Positions 6,477 to 35,667 of a stretch of 39,253 nt of DNA are shown piece by piece. Below the pieces are notes generated by a model. It made no database searches, was not told the DNA's origin, and was given only the letters and a program-made list of their open reading frames with translations. The position numbers were made by a program, and so were the translations under genes. This stretch comes from Escherichia virus ECG4: the sequence record MN218775.2, one strand, 5' to 3'. How positions within the stretch are numbered: position 1 is the first letter of the stretch; each line of letters opens with the position of its first letter.

Positions 6477-6514
6477 CTTTATTACTCATTTTCAATTATT
6501 GGAGCTTTACCCCT

Positions 6515-6701: not shown

Positions 6702-6968
6702 ATGGGCCGACTTTATAGTGGCAACCTCAACGCTTTCAAAGCAGCGTGTAACAGGCTTTATCAGTTAGACTTCGCTGTTATATCTCAGGAGTTTCAAGAC
6801 CATACGTCACGCCAAGAGTGCATGAAACTCAGGGTGGAGGACCGAGCTGGTAACATCTTCGCGCTTGAGACCTTCGCACACTACGATGAAGACGTGCTGT
6901 ATAATACTGCAACAGACTACCTCAACGGTCTCGCTGACCAACTCGACACATGGAGTATAACACAATGA
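6702..6968 (+). CDS. gp1.2-like protein (dGTPase inhibitor homologue), 88 aa
   Basis: MGRLYSGNLNAFKAACNRLYQLDFAVI ... matches the T7 gp1.2 N-terminus (MGRLYSGNLAAFKAATNKLFQLDLAVI). I used the internal ATG at 6702 rather than the GTG at 6609. Confidence 0.75.
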   Translation: MGRLYSGNLNAFKAACNRLYQLDFAVISQEFQDHTSRQECMKLRVEDRAGNIFALETFAHYDEDVLYNTATDYLNGLADQLDTWSITQ

Positions 6969-8017
6969 CAACTATCAAAACCAACCCGCATCGCGCTGTA
7001 GATTACTCTGAGTCAGGCGTTAAGAAAGCGCTTGAAGCTGCTGGGTCGCTGGAAGCCGAAGTGAAGTATGACGGTGTGCGGTTGAATATTCCGGTGACGT
7101 ATGAGGGTGAGACTTACTGGTTAAGCCGTGAGTCAAAAGCGCTTCCGGCCTTAGACTGTTTCAACAGTGGGTCAGGACATGCGTGCCGTGCGGCCGACTG
7201 GCGATGGTTCCTGAAGCAAGCAGGACATGAAGTCTTCGGTCTGATGATTGACGGAGAGGTGATGGTCAAGGGTGTAGACTTCAACACATCCTCAGGTCTT
7301 ATCCGCACCCTGTGGCTGACCCCAAGCAACTACAAGTGCACTGAAGGCTATCCAGGACGTAGCAACAAGGTCCCATTCCAGATAGCCCGGTTCCTACTCA
7401 AAGTGGTCGTCTACGGGGTCATCGACCTTAACATCATCAACGACCCGAAAGCCGAAGGTCCTATCCATAGCGTCACACGCCTGAAGGCCGAAGCTATCGT
7501 CCCTCTCCTCCAGAAATACTTCCCGGAAATAGACTGGGTTCTGTCTGAGTCATACATAGTGTTTGAACTTGAAGCGCTTACCTGCTTGTATGAGGAGAAG
7601 AGTTTAGAGGGCCATGAGGGTCTGGTGGTTAAAGACCCACTGGGACGCTGGAAGCGTGGCAAGAAGTCAGGTATGTTCAAGATGAAACCCGAAGAGGGCA
7701 TTGACGGTACGTTGTACGGCCTTATATGGGGAACAGAAGGTCTAGCCAACGAAGGTATGGTCATCGGCTTTGACGTTATGCTTGAGAACGGGATGGAAGT
7801 GGATCGGAAGCCTTCCACTCATGGTTCTGCTCCTCACTCAGGCCGCACGCATTTAAACTGGCGTAAGGGGTTATGCTCAAGCACTATTTATGGAAACCCG
7901 TTTGCGGGTAATCAGGTGGAAGTCCTCTTCATGGAGCGGTTCCCTGATGGCTCCCTTCGTCACCCCAGCTTCAAGTGCTGGCGTGGAACCGAAGACAACC
8001 CAACGGTGAAGTCATGA
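6950..8017 (+). CDS. ATP-dependent DNA ligase (T7 gene 1.3 homologue), 355 aa
   Basis: Adenylation motif KYDGVR (AEVKYDGVRLNI); length and position as for T7 ligase. Confidence 0.92.
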   Translation: MEYNTMTTIKTNPHRAVDYSESGVKKALEAAGSLEAEVKYDGVRLNIPVTYEGETYWLSRESKALPALDCFNSGSGHACRAADWRWFLKQAGHEVFGLMIDGEVMVKGVDFNTSSGLIRTLWLTPSNYKCTEGYPGRSNKVPFQIARFLLKVVVYGVIDLNIINDPKAEGPIHSVTRLKAEAIVPLLQKYFPEIDWVLSESYIVFELEALTCLYEEKSLEGHEGLVVKDPLGRWKRGKKSGMFKMKPEEGIDGTLYGLIWGTEGLANEGMVIGFDVMLENGMEVDRKPSTHGSAPHSGRTHLNWRKGLCSSTIYGNPFAGNQVEVLFMERFPDGSLRHPSFKCWRGTEDNPTVKS

Positions 8018-8275: not shown

Positions 8276-8300
8276 CCTAACCGACCTAAGGAGGAACCTT

Positions 8301-8375
8301 ATGTTTAAGAACTTAATGTTCAATCGTTTTATTACAAGATTCCACCTGTCTCACAACCCGTTCTGCTTGCATTAA
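8301..8375 (+). CDS. Possible 24-aa peptide ORF
   Basis: ATG with strong AAGGAGG RBS 6 nt upstream, directly after the promoter; very short, so weak. Confidence 0.25.
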   Translation: MFKNLMFNRFITRFHLSHNPFCLH

Positions 8376-8554
8376 GCGCAGCAACGAGTAGACTACTTCG
8401 GGAAGGCCGTTAAGCTGTCACCTACAGTTTCTTCGCTAATTACTCGCGAGTCAAAGCTGAAGGCTCGCACGAAAGGCCAACTTTACGTACCTGTGGTCTT
8501 TACAAAGTGGCCTCGCGTTCGTCTGTTCGTTGAGGTCGTGAAGGAGATGTTCTG

Positions 8555-11326: not shown

Positions 11327-11344
11327 ATGGCTTTTTTTTTTTAA
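11327..11344 (+). other. Apparent authentic gene 4 start codon followed by an in-frame TAA inside a T11 homopolymer
   Basis: AAGGAG RBS, then ATG GCT TTT TTT TTT TAA. The codons after the stop translate to [28 protein letters not shown], matching the T7 gp4A zinc-binding N-terminus. Confidence 0.6.
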
Positions 11345-13298: not shown

Positions 13299-15470
13299 AT
13301 GTTTGACCTTAAGAGTATCTGGGGTTCTGACATAGAGACCAACGGTCTCCTTGATACAGTATCCCAGTTTCACTGTGGGGTCCTGATTAACGCCGAGTCG
13401 AATGAGACCCTTAAGTATGGGGTAGCTCCGATGGTCGGTATCGTCGGTGGCTTCAAAGAGTATGTACAGAAGGTGGAAGAGATTGCCGCATCACCTGATG
13501 GTATGCTGGTATTCCACAACGGTATCAACTATGACGTCCCGGCTATTGACAAGCTGAAGCGTCTGTACTTTGGGAAACGCTTTAACTTCCCGAAACACAA
13601 GATGATTGATACCTTGGTGCTGGGACGCTTGATGTATCCAAACATTAAGTTCTCAGACATGGGCGCAGTGAAAGCTGGTCGTCTGCCACCTAAGATGATG
13701 GGACGCCAGTCTCTTGAGGCTTGGGGCTATCGTCTCGGTGAGATGAAAGGTGAGTACAAACACGATTACGTTGCCAAGTGCAAGGCTGAAGGTATCGAAT
13801 ATAAGGCTGGGGACGAATGGTTGTTCCCATCTCAGGAGATGCTAGACTATAACGTTCAAGACGTTGTGGTCACACTGGCGTTGTTCAAGAAGTTCCTGAC
13901 TGACAAGTATTACTTCCAGTCTGAACAGTTCGCTTTCGACCAGATTTATGCGTTGCGTCTGGAACATGATGCTGCGTGGACCTGTGCGAAGATGGAACGT
14001 AACGGCTATCCGATGAACACCGAGATGGTCGAAGGCTTATATCGTGAACTCACCGTCAAACGTGCAGAGTTGTTGGACAAGCTGCGTTCGACTTTCGGTA
14101 GCTGGTATGCACCAAAGGGAGGCAAGGAGTTCTTCAAGCACCCACGGACAGGCAAGGACCTTCCGAAGTATCCGCGAGTCGTGTATCCTAAGGTCGGGTC
14201 AGTATTCAAGAAGCCGAAGAACAAAGCTCAACGATTAGGTCTGGAGCCTTGCGAGTTCGACTCACGAGACACGATGGAAGGAGCACCGTTCACACCTATC
14301 ACTTACGTTGAGTTTAATCCGGGAAGCGGAGACCACTTAGCGAAAGTCCTGATGGAGCGTGGCTGGGAGCCTGTGGACTTCACTGACACCGGGAAACCTG
14401 TAGTCGATGACGAGACGTTAGAACACGTTAAGTTACCAGACGAAGAGGCTCAGGCTTGCGTAGAGCTGGTCCGTGAGTATCTGGTAGTCCAGAAGCGCAT
14501 CGGTCAGGCTGCTGAAGGTAAGAACGCATGGTTGAAACTTGTAGGTCCAGACGGACGTATGCACGGTTCAATCAACCCATGCGGGGCAGTAACCGGACGT
14601 GCTACTCATAGTTCACCAAACATGGCTCAGGTCCCTGCTAACGGTGCTCCGTATGGTGAGATTTGCCGTGGTGCTTTCGGTGCAGCTTGGAACAAGACGG
14701 ATGGTAAGCCAGACCCTTGGATTCAAGTGGGCGTGGATGCCTCAGGTCTTGAGCTTCGTTGTCTGGGGAACCGAGCGGCCCCGTTTGATGGTGGAGCCTA
14801 TGCGAAGACTGTGGTAGAAGGGGACATCCACTGGGCCAACGCAGTAAACGCTGGGTTAGCACCTAACGTCCCACGCGATAAGTCGAACCACGACCATGAG
14901 GCTTTCCGTAACAACGCTAAGACGTTCATCTATGCGTTCCTGTATGGTGCAGGGGCCGCTAAGATTGGACTGATAGTCGGTGGCGGTAAGAAGGAAGGTT
15001 CAGCTCTCATGAAGAAATTCATTGAGGGTACACCAGCTATCAAGGATCTGCGAGAGGCTGTGAAGAATACGTTAATCTCAGACTCTAAGTGGGTGGATGG
15101 AGAGAACATCGTCAAGTGGAAACGCCGTTGGTTGCGTGGACTTGATGGTCGCCGTATCCACATCCGGTCGCCGCACTCAGCACTTAACGCCTTACTTCAG
15201 GGTGATGGTGCGGTGGTCTGTAAACACTGGCTTGGCGAGATGGAACCTAAGCTTTACGAGGCATTTTACCTGCATGGCTGGGATGGTGACTTTGCGTTTA
15301 TGGCTTTTGTCCATGATGAAGTTCAAGTTGCCGGCCGGACTATGGAAATAGCTGAGGACATCGTTAAGGTGGCGCAATCCACAATGCGAGAGGTTGGAGA
15401 GTTCTACAAGTTCAAGTGTGTACTTGACACCGAGGGAAAGATAGGATTTACGTGGCGGGAGTGTCACTAA
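13299..15470 (+). CDS. DNA polymerase (T7 gene 5 homologue), 723 aa
   Basis: Family A polymerase order: N-terminal 3'-5' exonuclease (SDIETNGLL), then palm/fingers; length close to T7 gp5. Confidence 0.95.
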   Translation: MFDLKSIWGSDIETNGLLDTVSQFHCGVLINAESNETLKYGVAPMVGIVGGFKEYVQKVEEIAASPDGMLVFHNGINYDVPAIDKLKRLYFGKRFNFPKHKMIDTLVLGRLMYPNIKFSDMGAVKAGRLPPKMMGRQSLEAWGYRLGEMKGEYKHDYVAKCKAEGIEYKAGDEWLFPSQEMLDYNVQDVVVTLALFKKFLTDKYYFQSEQFAFDQIYALRLEHDAAWTCAKMERNGYPMNTEMVEGLYRELTVKRAELLDKLRSTFGSWYAPKGGKEFFKHPRTGKDLPKYPRVVYPKVGSVFKKPKNKAQRLGLEPCEFDSRDTMEGAPFTPITYVEFNPGSGDHLAKVLMERGWEPVDFTDTGKPVVDDETLEHVKLPDEEAQACVELVREYLVVQKRIGQAAEGKNAWLKLVGPDGRMHGSINPCGAVTGRATHSSPNMAQVPANGAPYGEICRGAFGAAWNKTDGKPDPWIQVGVDASGLELRCLGNRAAPFDGGAYAKTVVEGDIHWANAVNAGLAPNVPRDKSNHDHEAFRNNAKTFIYAFLYGAGAAKIGLIVGGGKKEGSALMKKFIEGTPAIKDLREAVKNTLISDSKWVDGENIVKWKRRWLRGLDGRRIHIRSPHSALNALLQGDGAVVCKHWLGEMEPKLYEAFYLHGWDGDFAFMAFVHDEVQVAGRTMEIAEDIVKVAQSTMREVGEFYKFKCVLDTEGKIGFTWRECH

Positions 15471-18178: not shown

Positions 18179-18419
18179 ATCAATCAGTAAGGCCTTCAGT
18201 AAAGTAGTAAAAGGTGCTTTGGGGACCGTTGGTCTTGGTAACGATGTTTCACCTAAGGTTGTTGAGGCTCAGACCCCAGCAGCGCCAGTGGAAGTACCGA
18301 ACGACAAAGTGGAAGATGTGGATACCGAAGCGACTGCATCTGACGAGAAGAAAGTGAAGCGTTCCGGTAAGCGGAGCCTTCAGGTCTCTCGCACCTCTGG
18401 TGGCGGTATTTCTATATAA
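18171..18419 (+). CDS. gp7.3-like tail/adsorption protein, 82 aa
   Basis: MGK start, Lys/Val-rich N-terminus and C-terminal SGGGISI as in T7 gp7.3 (...SGGGINI). Confidence 0.75.
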   Translation: MGKSISKAFSKVVKGALGTVGLGNDVSPKVVEAQTPAAPVEVPNDKVEDVDTEATASDEKKVKRSGKRSLQVSRTSGGGISI

Positions 18420-18430
18420 GGAGGTGACGA

Positions 18431-19999
18431 ATGGCTGAACGTGAAGGGTTCGCTGCTGAAGGCGCTAAGTCAGTTTATGATAGATTGAAGAACGGACGAC
18501 AGCCTTACGAGACCCGCGCACAGAACTGTGCTGCTGTCACTATCCCGTCACTGTTTCCTAAGGAATCAGACAACTCGTCTACTGAATATACCACTCCGTG
18601 GCAAGCTGTAGGTGCTCGCTGTCTGAACAACTTGGCTGCAAAGCTGATGTTGGCGTTATTCCCTCAGTCACCGTGGATGCGACTGACAGTCTCCGAATAT
18701 GAGGCAAAGACCTTGAGTCAGGACTCAGAGGCCGCTGCTCGTGTTGACGAAGGGCTGGCTATGGTCGAGCGGGTGTTGATGGCCTACATGGAGACTAACA
18801 GTTTCCGTGTCCCATTGTTCGAAGCTCTGAAGCAGCTTATAGTCTCCGGTAACTGTCTGCTCTACATTCCGCCTCCTGAACAGGGAACCTACAGTCCTAT
18901 GCGAATGTACCGCTTAGTGTCATACGTTGTTCAACGTGATGCGTTCGGTAACATCTTGCAGATTGTGACTCTCGACAAGGTAGCGTTTAGTGCTCTACCG
19001 GAGGACGTGAAGTCTCAACTCAACGCAGATGACTATGAGCCTGACACCGAGCTGGAAGTGTATACGCACATCTACCGTCAGGACGACGAGTATCTACGCT
19101 ACGAGGAAGTGGAAGGCATTGAGGTAGCAGGGACCGATGGTTCTTACCCACTGACTGCCTGTCCATACATCCCGGTACGAATGGTTCGACTGGATGGTGA
19201 AGACTACGGTCGTTCTTACTGCGAGGAGTATCTGGGAGACCTCAACTCGCTGGAGACGATTACAGAAGCTATCACCAAAATGGCTAAGGTAGCCTCCAAG
19301 GTGGTGGGCCTCGTTAACCCGAACGGTATCACACAACCTCGTCGTCTGAACAAGGCGGCTACAGGTGAGTTCGTGGCTGGTCGCGTTGAGGACATCAACT
19401 TCCTGCAACTGACGAAAGGTCAGGACTTTACGATTGCTAAATCGGTAGCTGACGCTATCGAGCAACGTTTAGGCTGGGCCTTCCTTCTTAATAGTGCCGT
19501 TCAGCGTAATGCCGAGCGAGTCACTGCTGAAGAGATTCGTTATGTTGCTGGCGAACTGGAGGCGACCTTAGGTGGCGTGTACTCAGTACAGTCACAAGAG
19601 CTTCAGTTACCTATCGTCCGTGTGCTGATGAACCAGCTTCAGTCTGCTGGCATGATTCCTGACCTTCCGAAAGAAGCAGTAGAGCCTACTGTCTCCACAG
19701 GTCTTGAAGCGTTAGGTCGTGGTCAGGACTTGGAGAAGCTGACTCAGGCGGTTAACATGATGACTGGTCTTCAGCCACTATCTCAGGACCCGGACATCAA
19801 CTTGCCGACCCTTAAGCTACGACTCCTGAACGCTCTGGGTATCGACACCGCTGGCCTACTCCTGACGCAAGACGAGAAGATTCAGCGCATGGCTGAGCAG
19901 TCGTCTCAACCGGCAGTTGTCAATGGTGCGGCCGCTGCTGGTGCTAACATGGGCGCTGCTGTAGGTCAGGGAGCTGGTGAGGACATGGCTCAAGCCTAA
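18431..19999 (+). CDS. Portal (head-tail connector) protein (T7 gene 8 homologue), 522 aa
   Basis: Position before scaffold and capsid; length close to T7 gp8. Confidence 0.92.
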   Translation: MAEREGFAAEGAKSVYDRLKNGRQPYETRAQNCAAVTIPSLFPKESDNSSTEYTTPWQAVGARCLNNLAAKLMLALFPQSPWMRLTVSEYEAKTLSQDSEAAARVDEGLAMVERVLMAYMETNSFRVPLFEALKQLIVSGNCLLYIPPPEQGTYSPMRMYRLVSYVVQRDAFGNILQIVTLDKVAFSALPEDVKSQLNADDYEPDTELEVYTHIYRQDDEYLRYEEVEGIEVAGTDGSYPLTACPYIPVRMVRLDGEDYGRSYCEEYLGDLNSLETITEAITKMAKVASKVVGLVNPNGITQPRRLNKAATGEFVAGRVEDINFLQLTKGQDFTIAKSVADAIEQRLGWAFLLNSAVQRNAERVTAEEIRYVAGELEATLGGVYSVQSQELQLPIVRVLMNQLQSAGMIPDLPKEAVEPTVSTGLEALGRGQDLEKLTQAVNMMTGLQPLSQDPDINLPTLKLRLLNALGIDTAGLLLTQDEKIQRMAEQSSQPAVVNGAAAAGANMGAAVGQGAGEDMAQA

Positions 20000-21132: not shown

Positions 21133-22182
21133 ATGGCAAACGTTCCGGGTCAGAAAATTGGTACAGACCAAGGTAAAGGCAAATCCAGTTCCGACGCTCT
21201 GGCGTTGTTCCTGAAGGTATTTGCTGGTGAAGTCCTGACCGCATTCACTCGCCGCTCTGTAACTGCTGACAAGCATATTGTCCGTACCATTCAGAACGGT
21301 AAGTCTGCTCAGTTCCCGGTCATGGGTCGCACCTCTGGTGTGTATCTGGCTCCGGGTGAGCGACTGTCCGATAAGCGTAAAGGTATCAAACATACCGAGA
21401 AAGTGATTACCATTGATGGTCTGCTGACTGCCGATGTGATGATTTTCGACATTGAAGACGCGATGAACCACTATGACGTGGCTGGCGAATATTCCAATCA
21501 GTTAGGTGAAGCTCTGGCTATCGCTGCTGATGGTGCTGTTCTGGCTGAAATGGCTATCCTGTGTAACCTACCGGCTGCATCCAACGAGAATATTGCTGGT
21601 CTTGGCACTGCGTCCGTACTTGAAGTAGGCAAGAAAGCTGACCTCAACACCCCGGCTAAACTGGGTGAAGCAATCATTGGGCAACTTACCATTGCTCGTG
21701 CGAAGCTGACCTCCAACTACGTTCCTGCTGGCGACCGTTACTTCTACACCACGCCTGACAACTACTCTGCAATCCTCGCTGCTCTGATGCCGAATGCTGC
21801 TAACTATGCTGCGCTGATTGACCCGGAGACTGGTAACATCCGTAACGTAATGGGCTTTGTTGTTGTTGAAGTTCCACACCTGACTCAGGGCGGTGCTGGT
21901 GAAACTCGTGGTGCTGATGGCATCACTATTGCGACTGGTCAGAAGCACGCATTCCCAGCTACCGCTACTGGTGATGTTAAAGTTGCTCTGGACAACGTTG
22001 TGGGCCTGTTCTCTCACCGTTCTGCTGTGGGTACTGTTAAGCTGCGTGACTTGGCGCTGGAACGTGACCGTGACGTCGATGCTCAGGGCGACCTGATTGT
22101 TGGTAAATACGCTATGGGTCACGGTGGTCTGCGTCCTGAAGCGGCTGGCGCACTGGTTTTCACAGCAGCTTCAGCGGGTTAA
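21133..22182 (+). CDS. Major capsid protein (T7 gene 10A homologue), 349 aa
   Basis: Position, length and strong leader after the phi10-like promoter. Confidence 0.95.
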   Translation: MANVPGQKIGTDQGKGKSSSDALALFLKVFAGEVLTAFTRRSVTADKHIVRTIQNGKSAQFPVMGRTSGVYLAPGERLSDKRKGIKHTEKVITIDGLLTADVMIFDIEDAMNHYDVAGEYSNQLGEALAIAADGAVLAEMAILCNLPAASNENIAGLGTASVLEVGKKADLNTPAKLGEAIIGQLTIARAKLTSNYVPAGDRYFYTTPDNYSAILAALMPNAANYAALIDPETGNIRNVMGFVVVEVPHLTQGGAGETRGADGITIATGQKHAFPATATGDVKVALDNVVGLFSHRSAVGTVKLRDLALERDRDVDAQGDLIVGKYAMGHGGLRPEAAGALVFTAASAG

Positions 22183-25740: not shown

Positions 25741-26211
25741 ATGTATATTCGTAAAGCTACGGAACCGGATGTCCACTACTTTCTGTGGCATCTTTCAGCA
25801 GATGATGTTAATGAGTGCAAAGCAAACTACGGGTCAACCGTTGGTCTCTCTGAAAGACTGCTTAAGCACCTATCTCCGTCATCTGTGGTTTTAACGAACG
25901 GTGTAGGCGAAGTGTTTGCCTATGGTGGAAACCAAGGGGATAACGTATGGTTCTTGACTTCAGGTCTGGTCAACAAGCTGAGACCTAAAGAGAAGCGAGA
26001 GTTCATAAAGCGTATCTCTGAGTACAGGGACTTAATGTTAGACCAATACGGGACCATCTGGAACTACGTGTGGTCAGGCAATAAGTCTCACATTAAATTC
26101 TTGAAGTTGCTTGGGGCTAAGTTCCATGATGATTGGACTATCAGCCCGGTAACTGGTGAGCGTTTTCAATTATTCACTATCTCTAAGGAGGACGTATGTG
26201 TGAACCCGTAA
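25741..26211 (+). CDS. Internal virion protein A (T7 gene 13 homologue), 156 aa
   Basis: Position after the phi13-like promoter; similar length. Confidence 0.6.
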   Translation: MYIRKATEPDVHYFLWHLSADDVNECKANYGSTVGLSERLLKHLSPSSVVLTNGVGEVFAYGGNQGDNVWFLTSGLVNKLRPKEKREFIKRISEYRDLMLDQYGTIWNYVWSGNKSHIKFLKLLGAKFHDDWTISPVTGERFQLFTISKEDVCVNP

Positions 26212-26794: not shown

Positions 26795-29077
26795 ATGGCT
26801 AGTAATATTGAATCAGCTCTGGCTAATCGGACTATTGGTCGTGGCAGAGCGCCTGGTAAAACTATCGCCGTCAACTATCAAGCAGCCAGCGTTCAGGCTC
26901 CAACTGGTGACTCCGGTCTGGCTCGTGCGTTAACTAACTTCGTTGAGTCTGGGACAGGATTGTACAAGCAGTTCAAGGACGAGGAGAAGACCAGAGCTGA
27001 CGAGCGGTCTAACGAGATTATCCGTAAGCTGACTCCTCAGCAAAGACGTGAGGCTATCCAGAACGGCACATTGCTGTATCAGGATGACCCTTACGCTATG
27101 GAAGCACTTCGAGTCAAGACTGGTCGTAATGCTGCCTTTGCTGTAGACGACGAGATTAACGTTAAGATTCAGAACGGTGAGTTCCGTACACGTCAGGACA
27201 TGGAAGAGTATCGCCACCAGCGACTTCAGGACGCCGCTAAGTCCTATGCTGAAGAGGCAGGTATTAACCCTACAGACGAGTTCTTCCAGCGTGGGTTCAA
27301 CGATAACATCACAGACCGCAACATCGCTATCTACGGGTCATTCAATAAGTATTTCAGCAAGCAGTCTGAAGAGACAGCAATGTTGAACACTCGTATTGAG
27401 ATGAACTCGTTCCTTAACGATGGGGACCTGATGCGTTCGCCTGAGTCTGGAAAGACCTTCATGGCCTACCTTCGGGATGGACTAACGACTGCCGCTATCC
27501 CTTCGGACCAGCGAGCACGAGAGGTAATTACCCAGACGGTACGTGACGCAATCCAGAAGTCTGGAGGCTCAAACTTCCTACAGCAAGTGCGAGGAGAGCG
27601 AATCACCCTTAATGGTGTGGACGCTACAGTCGAAGAGATTGTAGGACCTGATGTCTTCAACGCTGCTATTGTTGAGGCACAAGGAACTGAGTACAAGCTG
27701 GTGGCTAAGTATCAGGAAGACTTAGCGTTAGGCGTTCAGTCTGCGATTCTTCAGGATGACCCAACCATTGGTCTTTCCCAGATTCAGAAACTCAAGGAGC
27801 AGAACAACCTGCTTCAGCCGGGTGAAGAACTAACGCCTCAGCGTCAGATGCTTATTAATGCCGAAGCCAGCTTACTGGAAGCGGTCAAGCGTAAGTCTGC
27901 TGAACAGGCAAAGGAGAACACTAAGTTAATCCAGACCCAGAACAAGCAACTGGTCATCGACCAAGTTTATCAGCGACGTCTGGCTGGGGACAACGTGTCC
28001 ACCAACTATGAGGACCTTCCGGTCTCTGAAGCTACAGGAGAGTTCAAGCGTTCAGACATGAACAACTATGCGTCTGCCAAGCTACATCAGATTGACCAGA
28101 TGGACATCCCTGAGGCTGCTAAAGACGCACAGAAGGTGGCATTGTTAAGGGCTGACACTAACAATGGTCCGTTCCGTAATGCCTTCCAGACGCTGACTCA
28201 GGACGCTGCTGGTGAGTGGCAAGCTGCGGTCATCCGTGGGCAGTACGACCCAGACAAGATGCAACGCTTCGAATCTCTTCGTCGTGCCTACACTCAGGAC
28301 CCTTCAAGTTTTGCTGCTCTGTATCCTGACCAAGCTCAGTTGTTCTCTACGTTCGACCAGATGGACAAGATGGGTCTGGACCCTCAGACGATGATTGAAG
28401 CTGATAAGCAAGCTGCAAGTCAAAGCCGTGAGATGCGCATGGAGTCAGACAAGGCGTGGCAGGAGTTGAAGAATGACTCCCGGAATAACGACCTTTCGCG
28501 TCTTCCTACGTCTCTGGACGCAAGTGCTCGTAAGGTCTGGGACTCATGGTACTATCGTACAGGTAACGCTGACGCTGCAACGCAGCAGACTCAACGCTGG
28601 CTGAATGAGAACACCGTAACGTTCCAGTCTGAAGGTTCTGACGGTAAGTCCTTCGGCATGGTGTCCAAGCACCAGCTTATGGTCGGGGATAACCCAGAGT
28701 CGTGGCAGGTTGGTCGAGACATTATCGACACCGCTCGTAAGCAGCTCATTAAGGCCAACCCTTGGGTAGTGAACTCTCAGTTGTCCGTTGTTGAACAGAA
28801 CGGCTCTATCTTCCTCCAAGACGCTACAGGTACTATTCGTATTCGGTACGATAAAGAACTTGTAGGTAAACTCTACCGCGAACAACAGCAGAAGGCACAA
28901 GATGCCGCATACGCTCAGGCAGAACGTGACGCTAACAAGCGAGCGCGTATAGTCGGTACTAAAGCTGCTGGTGACAAACGTCGAGCTGACCGAGAGGCCA
29001 ACATCGAGAAGCGCGGTGGGATGTATAATGACGTCTCACTGGAGGGTATCGCAAACGTACTAATTGGTAAGGAGTAA
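26795..29077 (+). CDS. Internal core protein C (T7 gene 15 homologue), 760 aa
   Basis: Position and length. Confidence 0.85.
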   Translation: MASNIESALANRTIGRGRAPGKTIAVNYQAASVQAPTGDSGLARALTNFVESGTGLYKQFKDEEKTRADERSNEIIRKLTPQQRREAIQNGTLLYQDDPYAMEALRVKTGRNAAFAVDDEINVKIQNGEFRTRQDMEEYRHQRLQDAAKSYAEEAGINPTDEFFQRGFNDNITDRNIAIYGSFNKYFSKQSEETAMLNTRIEMNSFLNDGDLMRSPESGKTFMAYLRDGLTTAAIPSDQRAREVITQTVRDAIQKSGGSNFLQQVRGERITLNGVDATVEEIVGPDVFNAAIVEAQGTEYKLVAKYQEDLALGVQSAILQDDPTIGLSQIQKLKEQNNLLQPGEELTPQRQMLINAEASLLEAVKRKSAEQAKENTKLIQTQNKQLVIDQVYQRRLAGDNVSTNYEDLPVSEATGEFKRSDMNNYASAKLHQIDQMDIPEAAKDAQKVALLRADTNNGPFRNAFQTLTQDAAGEWQAAVIRGQYDPDKMQRFESLRRAYTQDPSSFAALYPDQAQLFSTFDQMDKMGLDPQTMIEADKQAASQSREMRMESDKAWQELKNDSRNNDLSRLPTSLDASARKVWDSWYYRTGNADAATQQTQRWLNENTVTFQSEGSDGKSFGMVSKHQLMVGDNPESWQVGRDIIDTARKQLIKANPWVVNSQLSVVEQNGSIFLQDATGTIRIRYDKELVGKLYREQQQKAQDAAYAQAERDANKRARIVGTKAAGDKRRADREANIEKRGGMYNDVSLEGIANVLIGKE

Positions 29078-32000
29078 CATAATGGCGACTCGTGGTATTC
29101 GCAATAACAATCCGGGTAACATCCGGGTAAGTAAGGACCAATGGGAAGGAATGACTGGAGATGATGGCGCATTCGTCACCTTCGATAGTCCAGAGTCTGG
29201 CGTCCGAGCTTTAGGTAAAAACCTGCTGTCCTACGGTCGCCAAGGCTATGACTCCATCGAGAAGATTATCAACCGATGGGCACCTCCTAACGAGAACGAC
29301 ACTAAGGCTTATATCGACTCAGTGGTGGCTGCAACTGGTATTCCAGCTACCCAGAGTCTCGACCTATCGAACCCGGACACCCTGTCTGCTCTGGCGCAAG
29401 CTATCAGCTTCCATGAGACAGGCTCCCGGTACAATCCTGAAGTCTATCAGAAGGGAGTCGAAAGAGCACTTAACGGCATTAGCCCAAAGACTCCACCAGT
29501 AAGCGCTAACGTATTTGACGCACTCACGGAAGGACTCAAGGCTAAACCTAAAGTAGCTCTGGGCGAGAACCTTCCGAACGCTGCTGGTCTGAACATTGAG
29601 GGTCAAGCATCTGAAGCTCCCAACGAATCGTTCGGTGAGATGTTCTATAAGTCTACTGGCGAGACCATGCAGGAACGAGAGGACCGCTCTACGTGGTTCG
29701 GTTTCGGTGAGGCTACAAAAGCTGAAGTGAAGAACTCTATGATCGGCGTGGCTATCCGCGCTGGTCAGACCGAGGACTCACTGGATGTCATTGGTGATGT
29801 TTTCAACCCGACACGCTGGAACAACCATAAGTGGTCTCGTGAGGAGCTGGACCAGATTCGTAACGCTGGGGTCCTACCTCAGTATTACGGGGTCATTACT
29901 GGTGGCTCCCCTCAGAACCTGACCGAGCTTATTAACTTGGCGCTTGAGAACCAGAAGTTGGACCAAGAGAAGGCCAAGGCAGGGATTGGTGCTCAGTTAG
30001 CTGCTGGTGTGATTGGTGCTGGTGTAGACCCGCTGACCTACGTTCCTATAGCTGGACAGGTTGGTAAAGGTGGTAAGCTGGTCAACAAGATGTTCACCGT
30101 GGCTGCTCAATCTGGAGCACTGTCTGGTGTGTCAGAGATGGCCCGTACCTCAGTGGCTGGTGGTGACGCTCATGTGGCTGAAGCTATCCTTGGTGGTGCT
30201 CTCTTCGGTGGAGGGATGACTGCTATCGCTGATGGTTTAGGCAGAGCCTTAGGTCGCAACACTAATGAGTTTGCTGGCCCAGCTACACGTCTGGAAGCTC
30301 GTGAGACCGCTCGTAACGTTGATGGTCAGGACCTGTCTCGTCTCCCTATTCAGGAAGGTGAGCAGACCTTTAGTCATCAAGGCGTTAAGTTCGCTGACGT
30401 TCCGAATGAGCCGGGTAGTGTACGACTTGAAGATGGATCAATCCTGATTGGTGAGAACCCTCTTAACCCTAAGACACGTCAAGTCTTTGACGAAGTGATT
30501 GAGCCTGAACGTGCCGCTGCTGGTGTGAACCTTGGTGGGCTAACTGAGATTGGCCTGAAGCTGCTTCGGTCCGAGAACCCTGAGATTCGTGGAGTCGCTG
30601 CCGACTTAGTGCGTTCACCGACTGGTATGCAGTCTGGGGCCTCAGGTAAAATCGGGACCACTGCGTCAGACGTATTCGAGAGACTTCGTGCTGTGGACCA
30701 TCGGTTCTACAACGACATCGACGATGCTGTTACTGAGGCACTCAAGGACCCTTACTTCCAGACAGCATTCTGGCGAGACTCTGGCGCATTCCGTCAAGAC
30801 ATCTATCAGCGTGTGTCTATGGCTATCGAAGATGGTAGCGGAAACCTGAAGGCTGAACTGACTACGGGAGAACTGAAAGTCTATGACCTGCTGAAGAACC
30901 AGTTCGACGCCAAGCGTGAGATGATGGAGAACCCAGCTATGTTTGGTCGCCAAGACGCTCAGTCTATCTTCCCGGGTAGCCGCTTCAAGGGGACCTACGT
31001 CCCTCATGTGTATAGCAAACAGATGAAGGAGCTGTACATCAAGGAGCTTGGGAGTCCAGAGGCGTTGCAGGAGGCCATCAAGAAGTCATGGTTGACCAGC
31101 TATGCGTCTCGACCTGAAGTCAAGAAACGCGTGGACGAGGCACTCTTAGAGGCTGACCCTACGTTGACTCCAGAAGGACTTGCTGCTGCGGTCGATAAGT
31201 ACGCCAACGATAAGGCTTACGGTATCTCTCACACCGAGCAGTTCGAACGTTCATCCGTAATGGAAGAGAACATCAACGGTCTGGTTGGTCTGGAGAACAA
31301 CAGCTTCCTTGAGGCTCGTAACCTGTTCGATAGTGATATGTCAATCGTCCTGCCTAACGGTCAGACCTTCAGTGTCAACAACCTGCGTGAGTGGGACATG
31401 GACAAGATTGTCCCGGCCTACAACCGTCGAGTTAATGGCGATATTGCTATCATGGCTGGTACAGGCAAAACCACGAAGGACATGAAGGACTTGGTTGAGA
31501 CCATGATGAACAAGGCTGGGGATGACGGTAAGTTGAAAGGTGAGGTATCTACCTTACGTGACACCTTGAAGATTCTCACTGGTCGTGCTCGACGTGATGG
31601 GGCTGATGATGCAGCCTTCGCTACAGTGATGCGTACAATGACAGACCTATCGTTCTTCGCTAAGAATGCCTACATGGGTGTTCAGAACTTAACGGAGATT
31701 GGTGGTATGCTGGCTCGTGGTAACGTTCGTGCAATGCTTCATGGAGTCCCGATGTTCCGTGACCTAGCCTTCCGTAACAAGAAGGTCGGAGCCTCAGAGA
31801 TTAAGGACCTGCACAATGTTATCTTCGGTAAGGAACTTGATGACTCAATCCGTCCATCTAAACAGGATGTCATTGACCGTCTGCGCTCCTATAGCGACTT
31901 AGGCCGCTGGGCAGCTACAGCTCTGGGGACTGCCAAGTATTACACTGGTGAACTTGCAGTACGCTCTCCGTTCACTAAAGTCCTCAACGGTACGACAAAC

Positions 32001-32969
32001 TACCTGTTAGATGCTGGACGTCAGGGATTCCTGTCCGACATCGTGGAACATAGTCTGACTGGCAGTAAGCGTCGGTTCGATGACCGCTGGCTTAAGACCG
32101 CTGGTATCTCCGACGAGCAGTGGAAGGGCATTAAGTCCCTAATCAGTGAGTCAGTGACTCGAGGTCCAGACGGGAAGTATACCATCAAGGATAAGAAGGC
32201 GTTCAGTCAGGACCCAAGGGCTATGGACCTGTGGCGTATGGGTGACACCATCGCTGACGAAACGTTACTCCGGCCCCACAAGCTGTCAAACATGGACGCC
32301 AAGGCTTATGGTCCTCTCGCTAAGACTGTCCTTCAGTTTAAGAACTTCGTCATCAAGTCCATCAATGGACGTACCATGCGAACCTTCTATAACGCCACGA
32401 AGAACAACCGAGCGATGGACGCTGCTCTGTCCACTGTGATCTCTATGGGTCTTGCTGGTATCTACTACATGGCTCAGGCGCATGTCAAGGCTTACGCTAT
32501 GCAGGATGGTCGAGACCGTGACTACCTCAAGCAAGCTCTGGACCCGACGATGATTGGATATGCAGCTCTATCACGTAGTTCACACCTTGGTGGACCACTT
32601 GGGGTAGCTAACATTCTGGGCGGAATCGCTGGGTATGAGGACACTAAGATGCTCCGTTCGTCTATCCTACCTCGTTCGCCTACAGAGAAGCCTGAACGTG
32701 CCATCGCGTATGGTGCGGCTACAAGTGACCCTGTTATGAATGTTGTTGGTAACTTCTTGGAGCAGGTTCCAGCTTTCGGATATGCTGCTAACGTTGGCGC
32801 TTCGGCTTACAACTTGGCTGGCTACCTCAAGGCTGATACTCGCGTCAACGAGCGTGACTACATGACCGGGATGTATAATACGTTCCGTGAACTGGTTCCG
32901 AACGACCCAATTACCCAGAAGCTGTTGCTTGGAACGTTTGAGGAGCAAGGCATCCACATCAAGGACTAA
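29064..32969 (+). CDS. Internal core protein D (T7 gene 16 homologue), 1301 aa, with a non-T7 N-terminal module
   Basis: Long colinear similarity to T7 gp16 over the C-terminal 1100 aa (NSFLEARNLFDSD, DIAIMAGTGKTTK, HAALSRSS). The N-terminal 120 aa (NNPGNIR ...) differs from the T7 transglycosylase region. Confidence 0.9.
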   Translation: MVRSNIMATRGIRNNNPGNIRVSKDQWEGMTGDDGAFVTFDSPESGVRALGKNLLSYGRQGYDSIEKIINRWAPPNENDTKAYIDSVVAATGIPATQSLDLSNPDTLSALAQAISFHETGSRYNPEVYQKGVERALNGISPKTPPVSANVFDALTEGLKAKPKVALGENLPNAAGLNIEGQASEAPNESFGEMFYKSTGETMQEREDRSTWFGFGEATKAEVKNSMIGVAIRAGQTEDSLDVIGDVFNPTRWNNHKWSREELDQIRNAGVLPQYYGVITGGSPQNLTELINLALENQKLDQEKAKAGIGAQLAAGVIGAGVDPLTYVPIAGQVGKGGKLVNKMFTVAAQSGALSGVSEMARTSVAGGDAHVAEAILGGALFGGGMTAIADGLGRALGRNTNEFAGPATRLEARETARNVDGQDLSRLPIQEGEQTFSHQGVKFADVPNEPGSVRLEDGSILIGENPLNPKTRQVFDEVIEPERAAAGVNLGGLTEIGLKLLRSENPEIRGVAADLVRSPTGMQSGASGKIGTTASDVFERLRAVDHRFYNDIDDAVTEALKDPYFQTAFWRDSGAFRQDIYQRVSMAIEDGSGNLKAELTTGELKVYDLLKNQFDAKREMMENPAMFGRQDAQSIFPGSRFKGTYVPHVYSKQMKELYIKELGSPEALQEAIKKSWLTSYASRPEVKKRVDEALLEADPTLTPEGLAAAVDKYANDKAYGISHTEQFERSSVMEENINGLVGLENNSFLEARNLFDSDMSIVLPNGQTFSVNNLREWDMDKIVPAYNRRVNGDIAIMAGTGKTTKDMKDLVETMMNKAGDDGKLKGEVSTLRDTLKILTGRARRDGADDAAFATVMRTMTDLSFFAKNAYMGVQNLTEIGGMLARGNVRAMLHGVPMFRDLAFRNKKVGASEIKDLHNVIFGKELDDSIRPSKQDVIDRLRSYSDLGRWAATALGTAKYYTGELAVRSPFTKVLNGTTNYLLDAGRQGFLSDIVEHSLTGSKRRFDDRWLKTAGISDEQWKGIKSLISESVTRGPDGKYTIKDKKAFSQDPRAMDLWRMGDTIADETLLRPHKLSNMDAKAYGPLAKTVLQFKNFVIKSINGRTMRTFYNATKNNRAMDAALSTVISMGLAGIYYMAQAHVKAYAMQDGRDRDYLKQALDPTMIGYAALSRSSHLGGPLGVANILGGIAGYEDTKMLRSSILPRSPTEKPERAIAYGAATSDPVMNVVGNFLEQVPAFGYAANVGASAYNLAGYLKADTRVNERDYMTGMYNTFRELVPNDPITQKLLLGTFEEQGIHIKD

Positions 32970-33033: not shown

Positions 33034-35667
33034 ATGTCCACGATTACACAATTCCCTTCAGGAAACACTCGTTACAGGATTGAGTTCGACTACCTAGCCA
33101 GAACGTTTGTTGTTGTTACGCTGGTGAATAGCTCTAACCCTGCCCTGAACCGTGTACTGGAAGTTGGTCGAGATTACCGATTCCTTAATCCAACGATGAT
33201 TGAGATGTTGGTTGACCAATCAGGTTTCGACATCGTTCGTATTCACCGTCAGACTGGAACTGACTTAGTGGTAGACTTCAGGAATGGCTCAGTGTTGACA
33301 GCTAGTGACCTGACCAATGCAGAGCTTCAGGCTATCCATATTGCAGAAGAAGGTCGAGACCAAACTGTTGACTTAGCGAAGGAATATGCCGATGCTGCTG
33401 GTAACTCTGCTGGCAACGCTAAGGATAGCGAGGACGAAGCACGACGAATCGCTGAGAGTATCAAGGCATCTGGTCTTCTTGGCTATATTACCCGTCGCTC
33501 CTTCGAGAAAGGCTTCAACGTTACAATATGGAACGAGGTACTGCTATGGGAAGAGGATGGTGATTATTACCGATGGGATGGTGGACTGCCAAAAAACGTA
33601 CCTGTTGGTTCAACTCCTGAAACGTCTGGCGGCGTTGGTTTGGGTGCGTGGGTTAGTGTTGGTGATGCGTCATTGCGCGCCGATATTGCAAACCTTTACC
33701 AACCGGAACAAATTTATTCGGCACAAAAACGGGAAACACTGTCTACAGTCCTGAGCAGCCGTTGGGCTAATTCGGGAGCAGATAAAAAGAAATTCGTTTT
33801 GACCTGCCATTACTATTCCCAGATTACGATGCTATTCTGGCGGCACACCCTGACTGGACGTTTATTTATCCGGGGTCATTCTGTATCGGGGATGATGGCA
33901 AAATCTATATTACATATGGCCCAAGTAACAACGCAGCTACGGAACGTTTCGTTGTACTTTACTCAGGTGAAGGTGAATACTTACGTATCTCCAGACTATT
34001 ATTGGAGGCACCGGGGTAAATGGTTCTGCGGTATCCGAGGGATTATCGTAACCAATTACTATGGTTCACTTAAGTTATTCCTTGATCCTACGATGGTAAC
34101 TTACCTGAGTTTGATATCTCAGCAGTGCCCTACGGCACCACGATTAGCTATACAGCGTTACACCAAGTGGGTCTGGGCATTAACCGTCAACGTAATGTTA
34201 TTGCGTACTTCAACCCGCATTTGCATTAACTGGTTTCACGGAATTTTCTCCGTATCATGCTGGATACATCACGTCAACTACTACTCATTACGGGTCACTT
34301 CAAACTATGCGACAAGCAATCTGTTTAGCTCCCGGTGTTTTGATCATGGCATTTGGTGGTGTTTACATTACAGGAACAACTGTACAAGCGCCTACTATTT
34401 ATCAGGGTACAAGCATTTAGCACTGATGGGCACAAAATGGTACAGGCAGTACTACCCCTACTCATTTTATTACTGTTTTGATGCTACAGGGTTAATGACC
34501 TCTCGTATAGAGAATCAGGGTGTCTGCTATTCAAATGGTCAAGTATTTACTTTCTGGATTTATATCAATACAACTGCCTCAAATGCGTATACTATCGGTA
34601 TCCTGATTACTCAAGAATATTCGAACTCCCCGGATTTGATTTTTCTGGGGCGGTTACGGTATCCCCGGTTACGATACTGTTCGAATGGCTTCTGGGTTTA
34701 CCCTCGTATTCTCTTACAGATCTGGATGGAGTTGCCTACCCAATTGGGATACAGCTTCATATCAGCAACCTCAATAACCTCAGCTTCTATAGATCAGACT
34801 GGGCCACTACCCGTAAGACTCTGCGCGTTACTTATCACACTTCCGGTTATACCGTATTTACTGGGGCTATCGGTTTACAGACTTATCGCTTATCCCTCAA
34901 TAATACTGACTCTGGTGCATTATCCCAAGGTCGAATTGCAGCTAGGGCTTTCGGTAATAAAACTTTATCCGAATCAGAACAGATTCTTGTCCTCGATCAA
35001 CAAAGTTCCGCATCTGCACATTCTCTTATCTTACGTGGTGGATCGTCGGTATTTAAGAGTGCTACGTCTATTATATCTATACGCCATCGAATACTGCCAC
35101 CTACGGTTTCGGGCGACGGATTACTACCAAAACATACATCTCTACGTCCATACACAGATAACGCTTACAATTTACGCGGCCCAGCATTACGTGTGGCTCA
35201 AGTCTTCGCAGCGATTGGTACTATTAATACGTCCGACTCCCGTGAAAAACTTACCCGTTTCAAATCTCGGATCATATCCTTCATGCCTGGGCGACGTGCA
35301 GATAATCACGTACAAGTGGTTATCTTCTATTGCGGGTACAGGTGCAGATTCTGCTCGTTGGCATTTCGGGTATTTGCCCAGCAAGTTCGTGATGCCTTCG
35401 TATAGCATGGTTTCATGGTACTACCTTCGGTCTGCTTTGCTATGTCGAGTGGGAAGATCAGTATCAACCTCAGTTCGTTCATCAGGTTATCACTGTTATT
35501 ATTCATGGTGTAGATACCGAAGTTACCCGTCAAGTGGAAACCGGTATTACCATACTTACTACAGCTGCCGGTCATCGCTGGGGCATTCGTCCAGATCAGT
35601 GTTTCTGGTTGAGGCCGCTTATCAGCGACGTCGCTGCGACAGGATTGAAACACGACTGACTGACTGA
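33034..35667 (+). CDS. Tail fiber/tailspike ORF, 877 aa: T7 gp17-like N-terminal adaptor domain, then an anomalous central region
   Basis: N-terminal about 230 aa matches T7 gp17 ([36 protein letters not shown]). From about 33750 to 35600 the open frame encodes a Tyr/Cys/Trp/His-rich, Asp/Glu/Lys-poor sequence. The ORF ends in the three-frame stop TGACTGACTGA. Confidence 0.5.

Follow-up and report, generated by a model that had tools for sequence, protein, structure and literature searches.

In the Kayfunavirus phages LI10P1 (OZ035801), vB_EcoP-U8 (MT862763; hereafter U8) and vB_Eco_ZCEC02 (PV833354; hereafter ZCEC02), the tailspike gene is an intact open reading frame (ORF) of 2,856 nucleotides encoding 951 amino acids, annotated in U8 (QOI58473.1) and ZCEC02 (XXO11344.1) as an endo-N-acetylneuraminidase. 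The protein starts with an adaptor of the T7 gp17 type, continues with a Tail_spike_N domain and a central body for receptor binding or depolymerization, and ends in a Peptidase_S74 domain, an intramolecular chaperone. Homopolymer consensus errors, for their part, are known from Ion Torrent, 454 and nanopore assemblies. Here we examine the corresponding gene of Escherichia virus ECG4 (sequence record MN218775.2; the whole stretch of 39,253 nucleotides that was analyzed is called the window), which is annotated as an ORF of 877 codons, stop-free from end to end. We show that the central 1.9 kb of this ORF is an indel-ridden copy of the normal tailspike gene in which all the stop codons of the annotated frame have been replaced. 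It is very likely that the region represents an ordinary Kayfunavirus tailspike gene whose database copy was corrupted, its stops edited away after a bad assembly. The strange ORF is not a real biological feature, and neither dual coding nor recoding nor a synthetic module lies behind it. The features discussed are collected in Table 1.

An open frame that is mostly not a coding frame

The ECG4 gene has the N-terminal PF03906 domain and the location, between gp16 and the holin and terminase genes, that characterize a gp17-type tail fibre or tailspike, and the synteny around it is kept in U8, ZCEC02 and Escherichia virus LS3. In the annotated product, Pfam reports only PF03906 (Phage_T7_tail, E = 1.6e-15) and PF18668 (Tail_spike_N, E = 2e-18), both within residues 10-211, and does not find Peptidase_S74 (PF13884). 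The T7 gp17-like N-terminus that an initial annotation, made from the letters alone, had given to the 877-codon ORF is real, with PF03906 at its start, and the annotated frame is the true frame (that of the intact relatives) up to position 33692. Past 33693 the ORF stays open yet lies mostly outside its own coding frame.

The translation of this second part is unusual. We compared the central 620 residues of the ORF with 5,914 residues from intact genes of the same window. The center is enriched in Tyr (9.8% vs. 3.5%), Cys (2.9% vs. 0.5%), Trp (3.1% vs. 1.3%) and His (3.5% vs. 1.5%) and depleted in Asp (1.8% vs. 6.5%), Glu (0.8% vs. 6.4%) and Lys (2.7% vs. 6.1%), as the initial annotation had described. 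The openness of the frame is also far above chance. Off-frame stops occur in the intact genes of the window at 0.067 per codon, i.e., approximately 43 are expected per 640 codons, and the probability of finding none in 640 off-frame codons is approximately 6e-20. When the central annotated-frame translation was searched against 5.8 billion proteins, only its own cluster was returned, together with real tailspikes that match patchily at 27-35%; among these proteins there is no independent homolog colinear with the annotated frame.

An ordinary tailspike gene read in many frames

A DNA search of phage records identifies the same gene, at 91-94% identity, in LI10P1, U8, ZCEC02 and two Salmonella phage records. 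The matches to each relative are split into three pieces and span approximately 200 more bases than the window copy. In the intact U8 protein, Pfam detects PF03906, PF18668 and the C-terminal Peptidase_S74 chaperone (PF13884, 47.8 bits), and nothing else.

We made global nucleotide alignments of the window gene to U8 and LI10P1 and compared the U8 protein with the window by tblastn, in which it matches in more than one frame. The N-terminal part is ordinary, with 209 of 219 residues identical to LI10P1. It ends at a 5-nucleotide insertion (CCTTT), absent from all three intact relatives, that causes the first frameshift. The gene body beyond it carries sixteen 1-nucleotide and three 2-nucleotide deletions and, among these 19 changes, no small insertion. 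Seventeen of the 19 shorten a G, C or A run of the relative (examples, from relative to window: GGGG to GGG, CCCCC to CCCC, AAAAAA to AAAAA, TTGGA to TTGA). There are in addition two larger deletions, one of 60 and one of 121 nucleotides, and an inverted patch of about 62 nucleotides that is either a misassembly or a real micro-inversion.

As a result of these changes, the true frame shifts approximately 20 times along the gene, and past 33693 the annotated ORF has only 22% of its aligned bases in the true frame. The blocks themselves are approximately 94-97% identical to LI10P1, and when each is translated in its true frame, 763 of 839 residues (91%) are identical to the LI10P1 protein. When the coding frame is followed by codon usage, as learned from the window's intact genes alone, it switches in the order predicted by the alignment. 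The protein-like stretches noticed earlier in the third forward frame (34196-34420 and 35405-35597) coincide with two true-frame blocks (34215-34404 and 35414-35610). The block-wise alignment bears out the central point of the initial annotation, namely an open ORF whose own frame is not the coding one, with real signal in the others. The annotated frame regains the true one for its last 16 codons; the ORF then terminates early (...TD*) where the intact gene reads ...DKLEGCGGRG*.

Once the frames are stitched together, the ECG4 translation regains Peptidase_S74 at 26.8 bits, against a Pfam cut-off of 22. Judged by domain content, the underlying gene is a member of the S74-chaperone tailspikes, and the annotated ORF product is not. 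Among proteins in the PDB, the sequence relatives of the U8 protein are tailspikes, including the K1F endosialidase C-terminal chaperone fragment 3gw6, and the similarity of U8 to 3gw6 is limited to residues 760-945, the chaperone region. An endosialidase catalytic domain is missing from the Pfam results for the intact U8 protein. The label "endo-N-acetylneuraminidase" of the relatives may derive from the C-terminal chaperone domain alone. The same tailspike also occurs in phages recorded on Salmonella Typhi. Because of this occurrence and of the missing Pfam catalytic domain, the real substrate of the tailspike is uncertain.

The damage is confined to the tailspike gene, since tblastn places each of the 43 other ZCEC02 proteins that match the window in a single frame. 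Most of them are 88-100% identical and a few naturally divergent ones 60-69%. The latter belong to the DNA ligase, a small ORF and a gp13-like scaffold or core protein (6965-8011, 8301-8549 and 25741-26196), whose neighbors are 95-100% identical to ZCEC02; their low identity is probably ordinary mosaicism.

Replacement of the stop codons

How does a gene with some 20 frame changes remain open? When the LI10P1 bases are projected onto the window coordinates, the annotated frame contains 47 stops, and the window has none of them. Projection of any of the three intact relatives gives 43-47 stops in this frame, while the other two frames retain 45 of 56 and 30 of 44 of their projected stops. Each of the 47 sites is occupied in the window by a sense codon that differs from the stop by a single substitution (TAA to TAT or TAC, TAG to TAC, TGA to TCA, TGC or TGT). 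The codons found there are TAT, TAC, TCA, TGC, TGT, TGG and CAA, and 26 Tyr and 17 Ser codons of the ORF occupy former stop sites. The excess of Tyr, Ser and Cys is therefore in part a direct product of the stop replacements (TAT/TAC/TCA/TGC), and the remaining odd composition is that of ordinary off-frame translation.

We call a substitution window-private if all three intact relatives agree at a position where the window differs. There are 60 such substitutions, of which 53 destroy a stop (43 in the annotated frame, nine in the frame with codon starts divisible by 3, and one in the third frame) and seven destroy none. Their spectrum is dominated by G to C (33), A to T (15) and A to C (8), so that nearly all are purine-to-pyrimidine transversions. 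In contrast, only seven of the 80 natural differences between LI10P1 and U8 toggle a stop in the annotated frame. We could rule out natural divergence as the source of the substitutions, given the difference between 43 of 60 and seven of 80 and the near absence of transitions among the private changes.

A second record provides the decisive comparison at these sites. The window is colinear with, and 99.2% identical to, LS3 (MN518893.2, i.e., version 2 of that record), a Kayfunavirus whose source is sewage water. Between ECG4 and LS3 version 2 there are no gaps across 5,667 aligned bases, and all tailspike indels are common to both. At the 47 former stops, LS3 version 2 has the same replacement codon as ECG4 at 17 sites and another one at 30 sites (AAA, AAG, AGA, TTA, TTG or TGT). 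Two adjacent in-frame TAG codons created by the inverted patch, for instance, are TAC TAC in ECG4 and TTG TTG in LS3 version 2. The two records share their indels but differ in their replacement codons, which argues that the stops were replaced separately in each. LS3 version 2, the only "relative" that has this ORF, is set apart from ECG4 by non-synonymous swaps at the would-be stops and shows no synonymous variation.

One former stop can be seen directly. Codon 308 is a sense codon in both ECG4 and LS3 version 2, and a 42 amino acid LS3 "uncharacterized protein" (UniRef A0A7D5KUP4) equals codons 266-307 of the ORF, ending right before it. This protein, which lies in the 90% cluster of the ORF product together with the LS3 version 2 product WGG26706.1, is absent from the version 2 annotation and for this reason would stem from version 1 of the LS3 record, where the stop was presumably still present.

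The other reading frames

The initial annotation had drawn attention to a second forward frame, and its extent, its 307 open codons and its late first start codon are all as described there. This frame has no ATG, GTG or TTG in its first 237 codons. It is the true tailspike frame at 34712-34785, 34806-35073 and 35128-35244, roughly half its length, and it is prolonged on both sides by the nine window-private stop-removing substitutions (between 34385 and 34612, and at 35339 and 35345). Outside the true-frame blocks its openness rests on window-private edits that are absent from LS3 version 2 and from the relatives. The best reading of the stop removals in this frame is that an editing round made earlier, in another frame, left them behind. 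It had also been claimed, from roughly 20 cases, that codons ending in TA or TG in the second frame are always followed by a pyrimidine. This holds for the NTA codons (26 of 26 are followed by T or C) but not for the 11 NTG codons, where the next base is G in six cases, C in four and T in one; it is never A, and the stop avoidance in the annotated frame stands.

A true dual-coding region would be expected to show two frames, each with a start codon and each open in independent relatives, which the second and annotated frames do not. The suggestion of a real overprinted region is not supported, as roughly half of the second frame is the true frame and the stretches flanking it had their stops edited out as well. 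Programmed frameshifting or slippage, which would use one or a few defined slippery sites conserved in relatives, is likewise not what we find, since the approximately 20 frame changes are all missing from the relatives, where the gene occupies a single frame. On the minus strand, a stretch described as protein-like is indeed open, but it is an ordinary antisense frame, equally open in the intact relative, and we rejected it as a real gene.

Table 1. Features of the ECG4 tailspike region and related positions in the window
Feature	Position	Strand	Remarks
Annotated ORF	33034..35667	+	WEU75031.1, mislabelled; open throughout only through substituted stops
Intact N-terminal tailspike part	33034..33692	+	PF03906 and PF18668; annotated frame is the true frame
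5-nucleotide insertion CCTTT	33693..33697	+	From alignment; against all three intact relatives; first frameshift
Frame-hopping gene body	33698..35610	+	From alignment to intact relatives
47 would-be stop codons	33715..35574	+	First 33715, last 35572; LI10P1 bases on window coordinates
Small deletions, first ten	33730, 33784, 33984, 34039, 34083, 34215, 34405, 34455, 34480, 34638	+	From alignment
Small deletions, other nine	34663, 34694, 34786, 34806, 35245, 35289, 35368, 35414, 35611	+	From alignment
Codon 308	33955..33957	+	TAC in ECG4 and LS3 version 2, TAG in relatives
60-nucleotide deletion	junction 34173/34174	+	From alignment; against LI10P1, U8 and ZCEC02
Second forward frame	34482..35402	+	Codon starts divisible by 3; 307 codons open; first ATG/GTG/TTG at 35193
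121-nucleotide deletion	junction 34711/34712	+	From alignment; against relatives; not a multiple of 3
Inverted patch, ~62 nucleotides	35072..35134	-	From alignment; reverse complement of LI10P1 gene positions ~2234-2296
Minus-strand ORF	35327..35653	-	108 codons; antisense frame, also open in intact relative
Last 16 codons	35611..35658	+	True frame again; 16/16 identical to LI10P1
ECG4 vs. LS3 version 2 difference clusters	6480-6514, 8299-8300, 11335-11342, 15253-15266, 18247-18249, 18871-18874, 22170-22171

The sister records LS3 and LS2

The LS3 version 2 gene (coding sequence LS3_45) has the same ORF length as that of ECG4, the same indels and the same wrong product name. The ECG4 product is exactly GenBank WEU75031.1, named "peptidoglycan lytic exotransglycosylase", and this name, which both records give to the tailspike ORF, is also that of the upstream gp16 gene (29064-32969). 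On the tailspike ORF the name is an annotation error, which has been passed on to UniRef. At the nucleotide level the two tailspike genes are 96.5% identical and align ungapped, but there are approximately 90 point differences, almost all of them at would-be stops. LS3 version 2 has mostly the first base of the stop altered (TAA to AAA, TGA to AGA), whereas ECG4 has the third or second (TAA to TAT, TGA to TCA). Each record also shows additional stop removal in a different place: LS3 version 2 in the other off-frame, at 34792-35158, and ECG4 in the frame divisible by 3. In both records these removals look like traces of editing in another frame.

A third record is that of LS2 (MN518894). The "tail fiber protein" of its version 1 (UniRef A0A7D5G6L8; 693 amino acids) contains the N-terminal segment three times and includes the same off-frame stretch as the ECG4 product, and one indel is common to ECG4, LS3 version 2 and LS2 version 1. 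The triplicated N-terminus and the common off-frame stretch indicate misassembly across these records. Because they share indels and have similar names, ECG4, LS3 and LS2 are best read as one data source. We found no paper on ECG4, LS3, MN518893 or MN518894 in a literature search.

Outside the tailspike gene there are 218 substitutions between ECG4 and LS3 version 2, and they fall in tight clusters (Table 1). The clusters are often runs of T in ECG4 and of G or other bases in LS3 version 2, e.g., CTTTTTTTTTTTAAG vs. CTTTGATTTCGGAAG. At 18247-18249 both records have an additional codon, absent from ZCEC02, which is TTT in ECG4 and GGG in LS3 version 2. In 56 of the cases neither record matches ZCEC02. 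The clusters look like more non-natural editing of one base sequence. The ligase region, although its low identity to ZCEC02 is probably ordinary mosaicism, is also the richest in differences between ECG4 and LS3 version 2, with 40 between 7000 and 8000.

Origin of the sequence

The account that we favor is a corrupted database copy. The underlying assembly contains the 5-nucleotide insertion, the 19 small deletions, the two larger deletions and the inversion, and the frame rotates approximately 20 times. Every stop in the frame of the start codon has become a sense codon by a single purine-to-pyrimidine change, giving 877 stop-free codons with a nonsense middle. The replacement would have been made in silico, either by an ORF-repair script or by the submitter, probably in order to annotate a coding sequence without internal stops, and independently in LS3 version 2, where all indels are shared and the replacement codons are others. 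The phage is not expected to make a protein with the annotated central sequence.

Some points weigh against this account. Who or what made the edits, and why, is inferred. A uniform sequencing error process would not usually limit homopolymer errors to 1.9 kb in a genome of 39 kb; the local cluster suggests different local data, such as low coverage, a patch of long reads only, or an assembly that was reference-guided elsewhere. The account also explains the stop removals in the second frame by no more than "an earlier editing pass".

The confinement of the errors to one gene, and their presence in ECG4 and LS3 version 2 (with one also in LS2 version 1), would fit with indels that are physically real, i.e., a decayed, pseudogenised receptor-binding module in which only the stop replacements are editorial. 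We regard this as very unlikely. The receptor-binding body cannot be lost by a podovirus that forms plaques and has only one tailspike gene, and the three records that agree are best read as sharing one data source. That all 19 small indels are deletions, 17 of them homopolymer contractions, is a signature of read or consensus error; the inversion and the triplicated N-terminus of LS2 version 1 point to misassembly. It is because of these features (deletions only, homopolymer contexts, a local inversion and that triplication) that we infer assembly or consensus errors as the source of the indels, larger deletions and inversion. There is only a very slim chance that ECG4 and LS3 are viable with a destroyed receptor-binding module, through the N-terminal adaptor and some other factor or through rescue by homopolymer slippage, with only the stops editorial. 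The earlier idea of a recoded or frame-scrambled receptor-binding module likewise finds no support, the gene being an ordinary tailspike with approximately 20 assembly indels.

A genuine overprinted, dual-coding or recoded gene, expressed by multiple ribosomal frameshifts, by transcriptional slippage at homopolymers or as two overlapping products, could account for two forward frames that are open over the same 0.9 kb and for frame changes that occur at homopolymers. However, it would need approximately 20 successive shifts and a second frame that does without a start codon over most of its length, while a single frame suffices for the same protein in the intact relatives, the annotated-frame product has no independent homolog among 5.8 billion proteins, and stops are avoided by transversions that look non-natural and are not the same in two near-identical records. 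Such a gene is extremely unlikely. An equally improbable proposal, a physically synthetic or engineered ORF-preserving insert, is right in that the stop-avoiding base choices look designed, and so comes closest in spirit among the earlier suggestions, but what was designed is a database sequence and not a DNA insert: the sequence is a natural tailspike plus indels, two records have the same indels with different replacement codons, the 42 amino acid LS3 protein still stops at one site, and the LS3 record, of sewage origin, gives no indication of engineering.

Implications and comparison with known systems

The value of these findings lies in data hygiene, as a database-quality flag, and they have no bearing on phage biology. 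In two public phage records, ECG4 and LS3 version 2, the nucleotide sequence has apparently been altered so that frameshift-induced stops are hidden, and NCBI and UniRef now list the resulting 877 amino acid "protein" under a wrong name. Entries of this kind contaminate protein databases, training sets for receptor-binding proteins and host range, and scans for unusual coding. A reusable filter would combine off-frame composition, purine-to-pyrimidine changes at every would-be stop, and differing replacements in near-identical records.

Compared with the tailspike genes of LI10P1, U8 and ZCEC02, the ECG4 gene occupies the same genome position between gp16 and holin. Its N-terminal 219 residues are 95% identical to theirs, the remainder is 91% identical when read block-wise in the true frame, and the domains PF03906, PF18668 and PF13884 are all shared once the ECG4 frames are stitched. 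Unlike theirs, the ECG4 copy has approximately 20 indels along with two larger deletions, an inversion and, at 47 sites, substituted stops, and its annotated product is nonsense past residue ~220. The ECG4 gene also resembles the pseudo-ORFs produced by homopolymer errors, in that its small indels are deletions only, concentrated in G, C and A runs, and rotate the frame. Such errors usually leave broken ORFs with stops, whereas in ECG4 the stops were later removed and the error is disguised as one long ORF.

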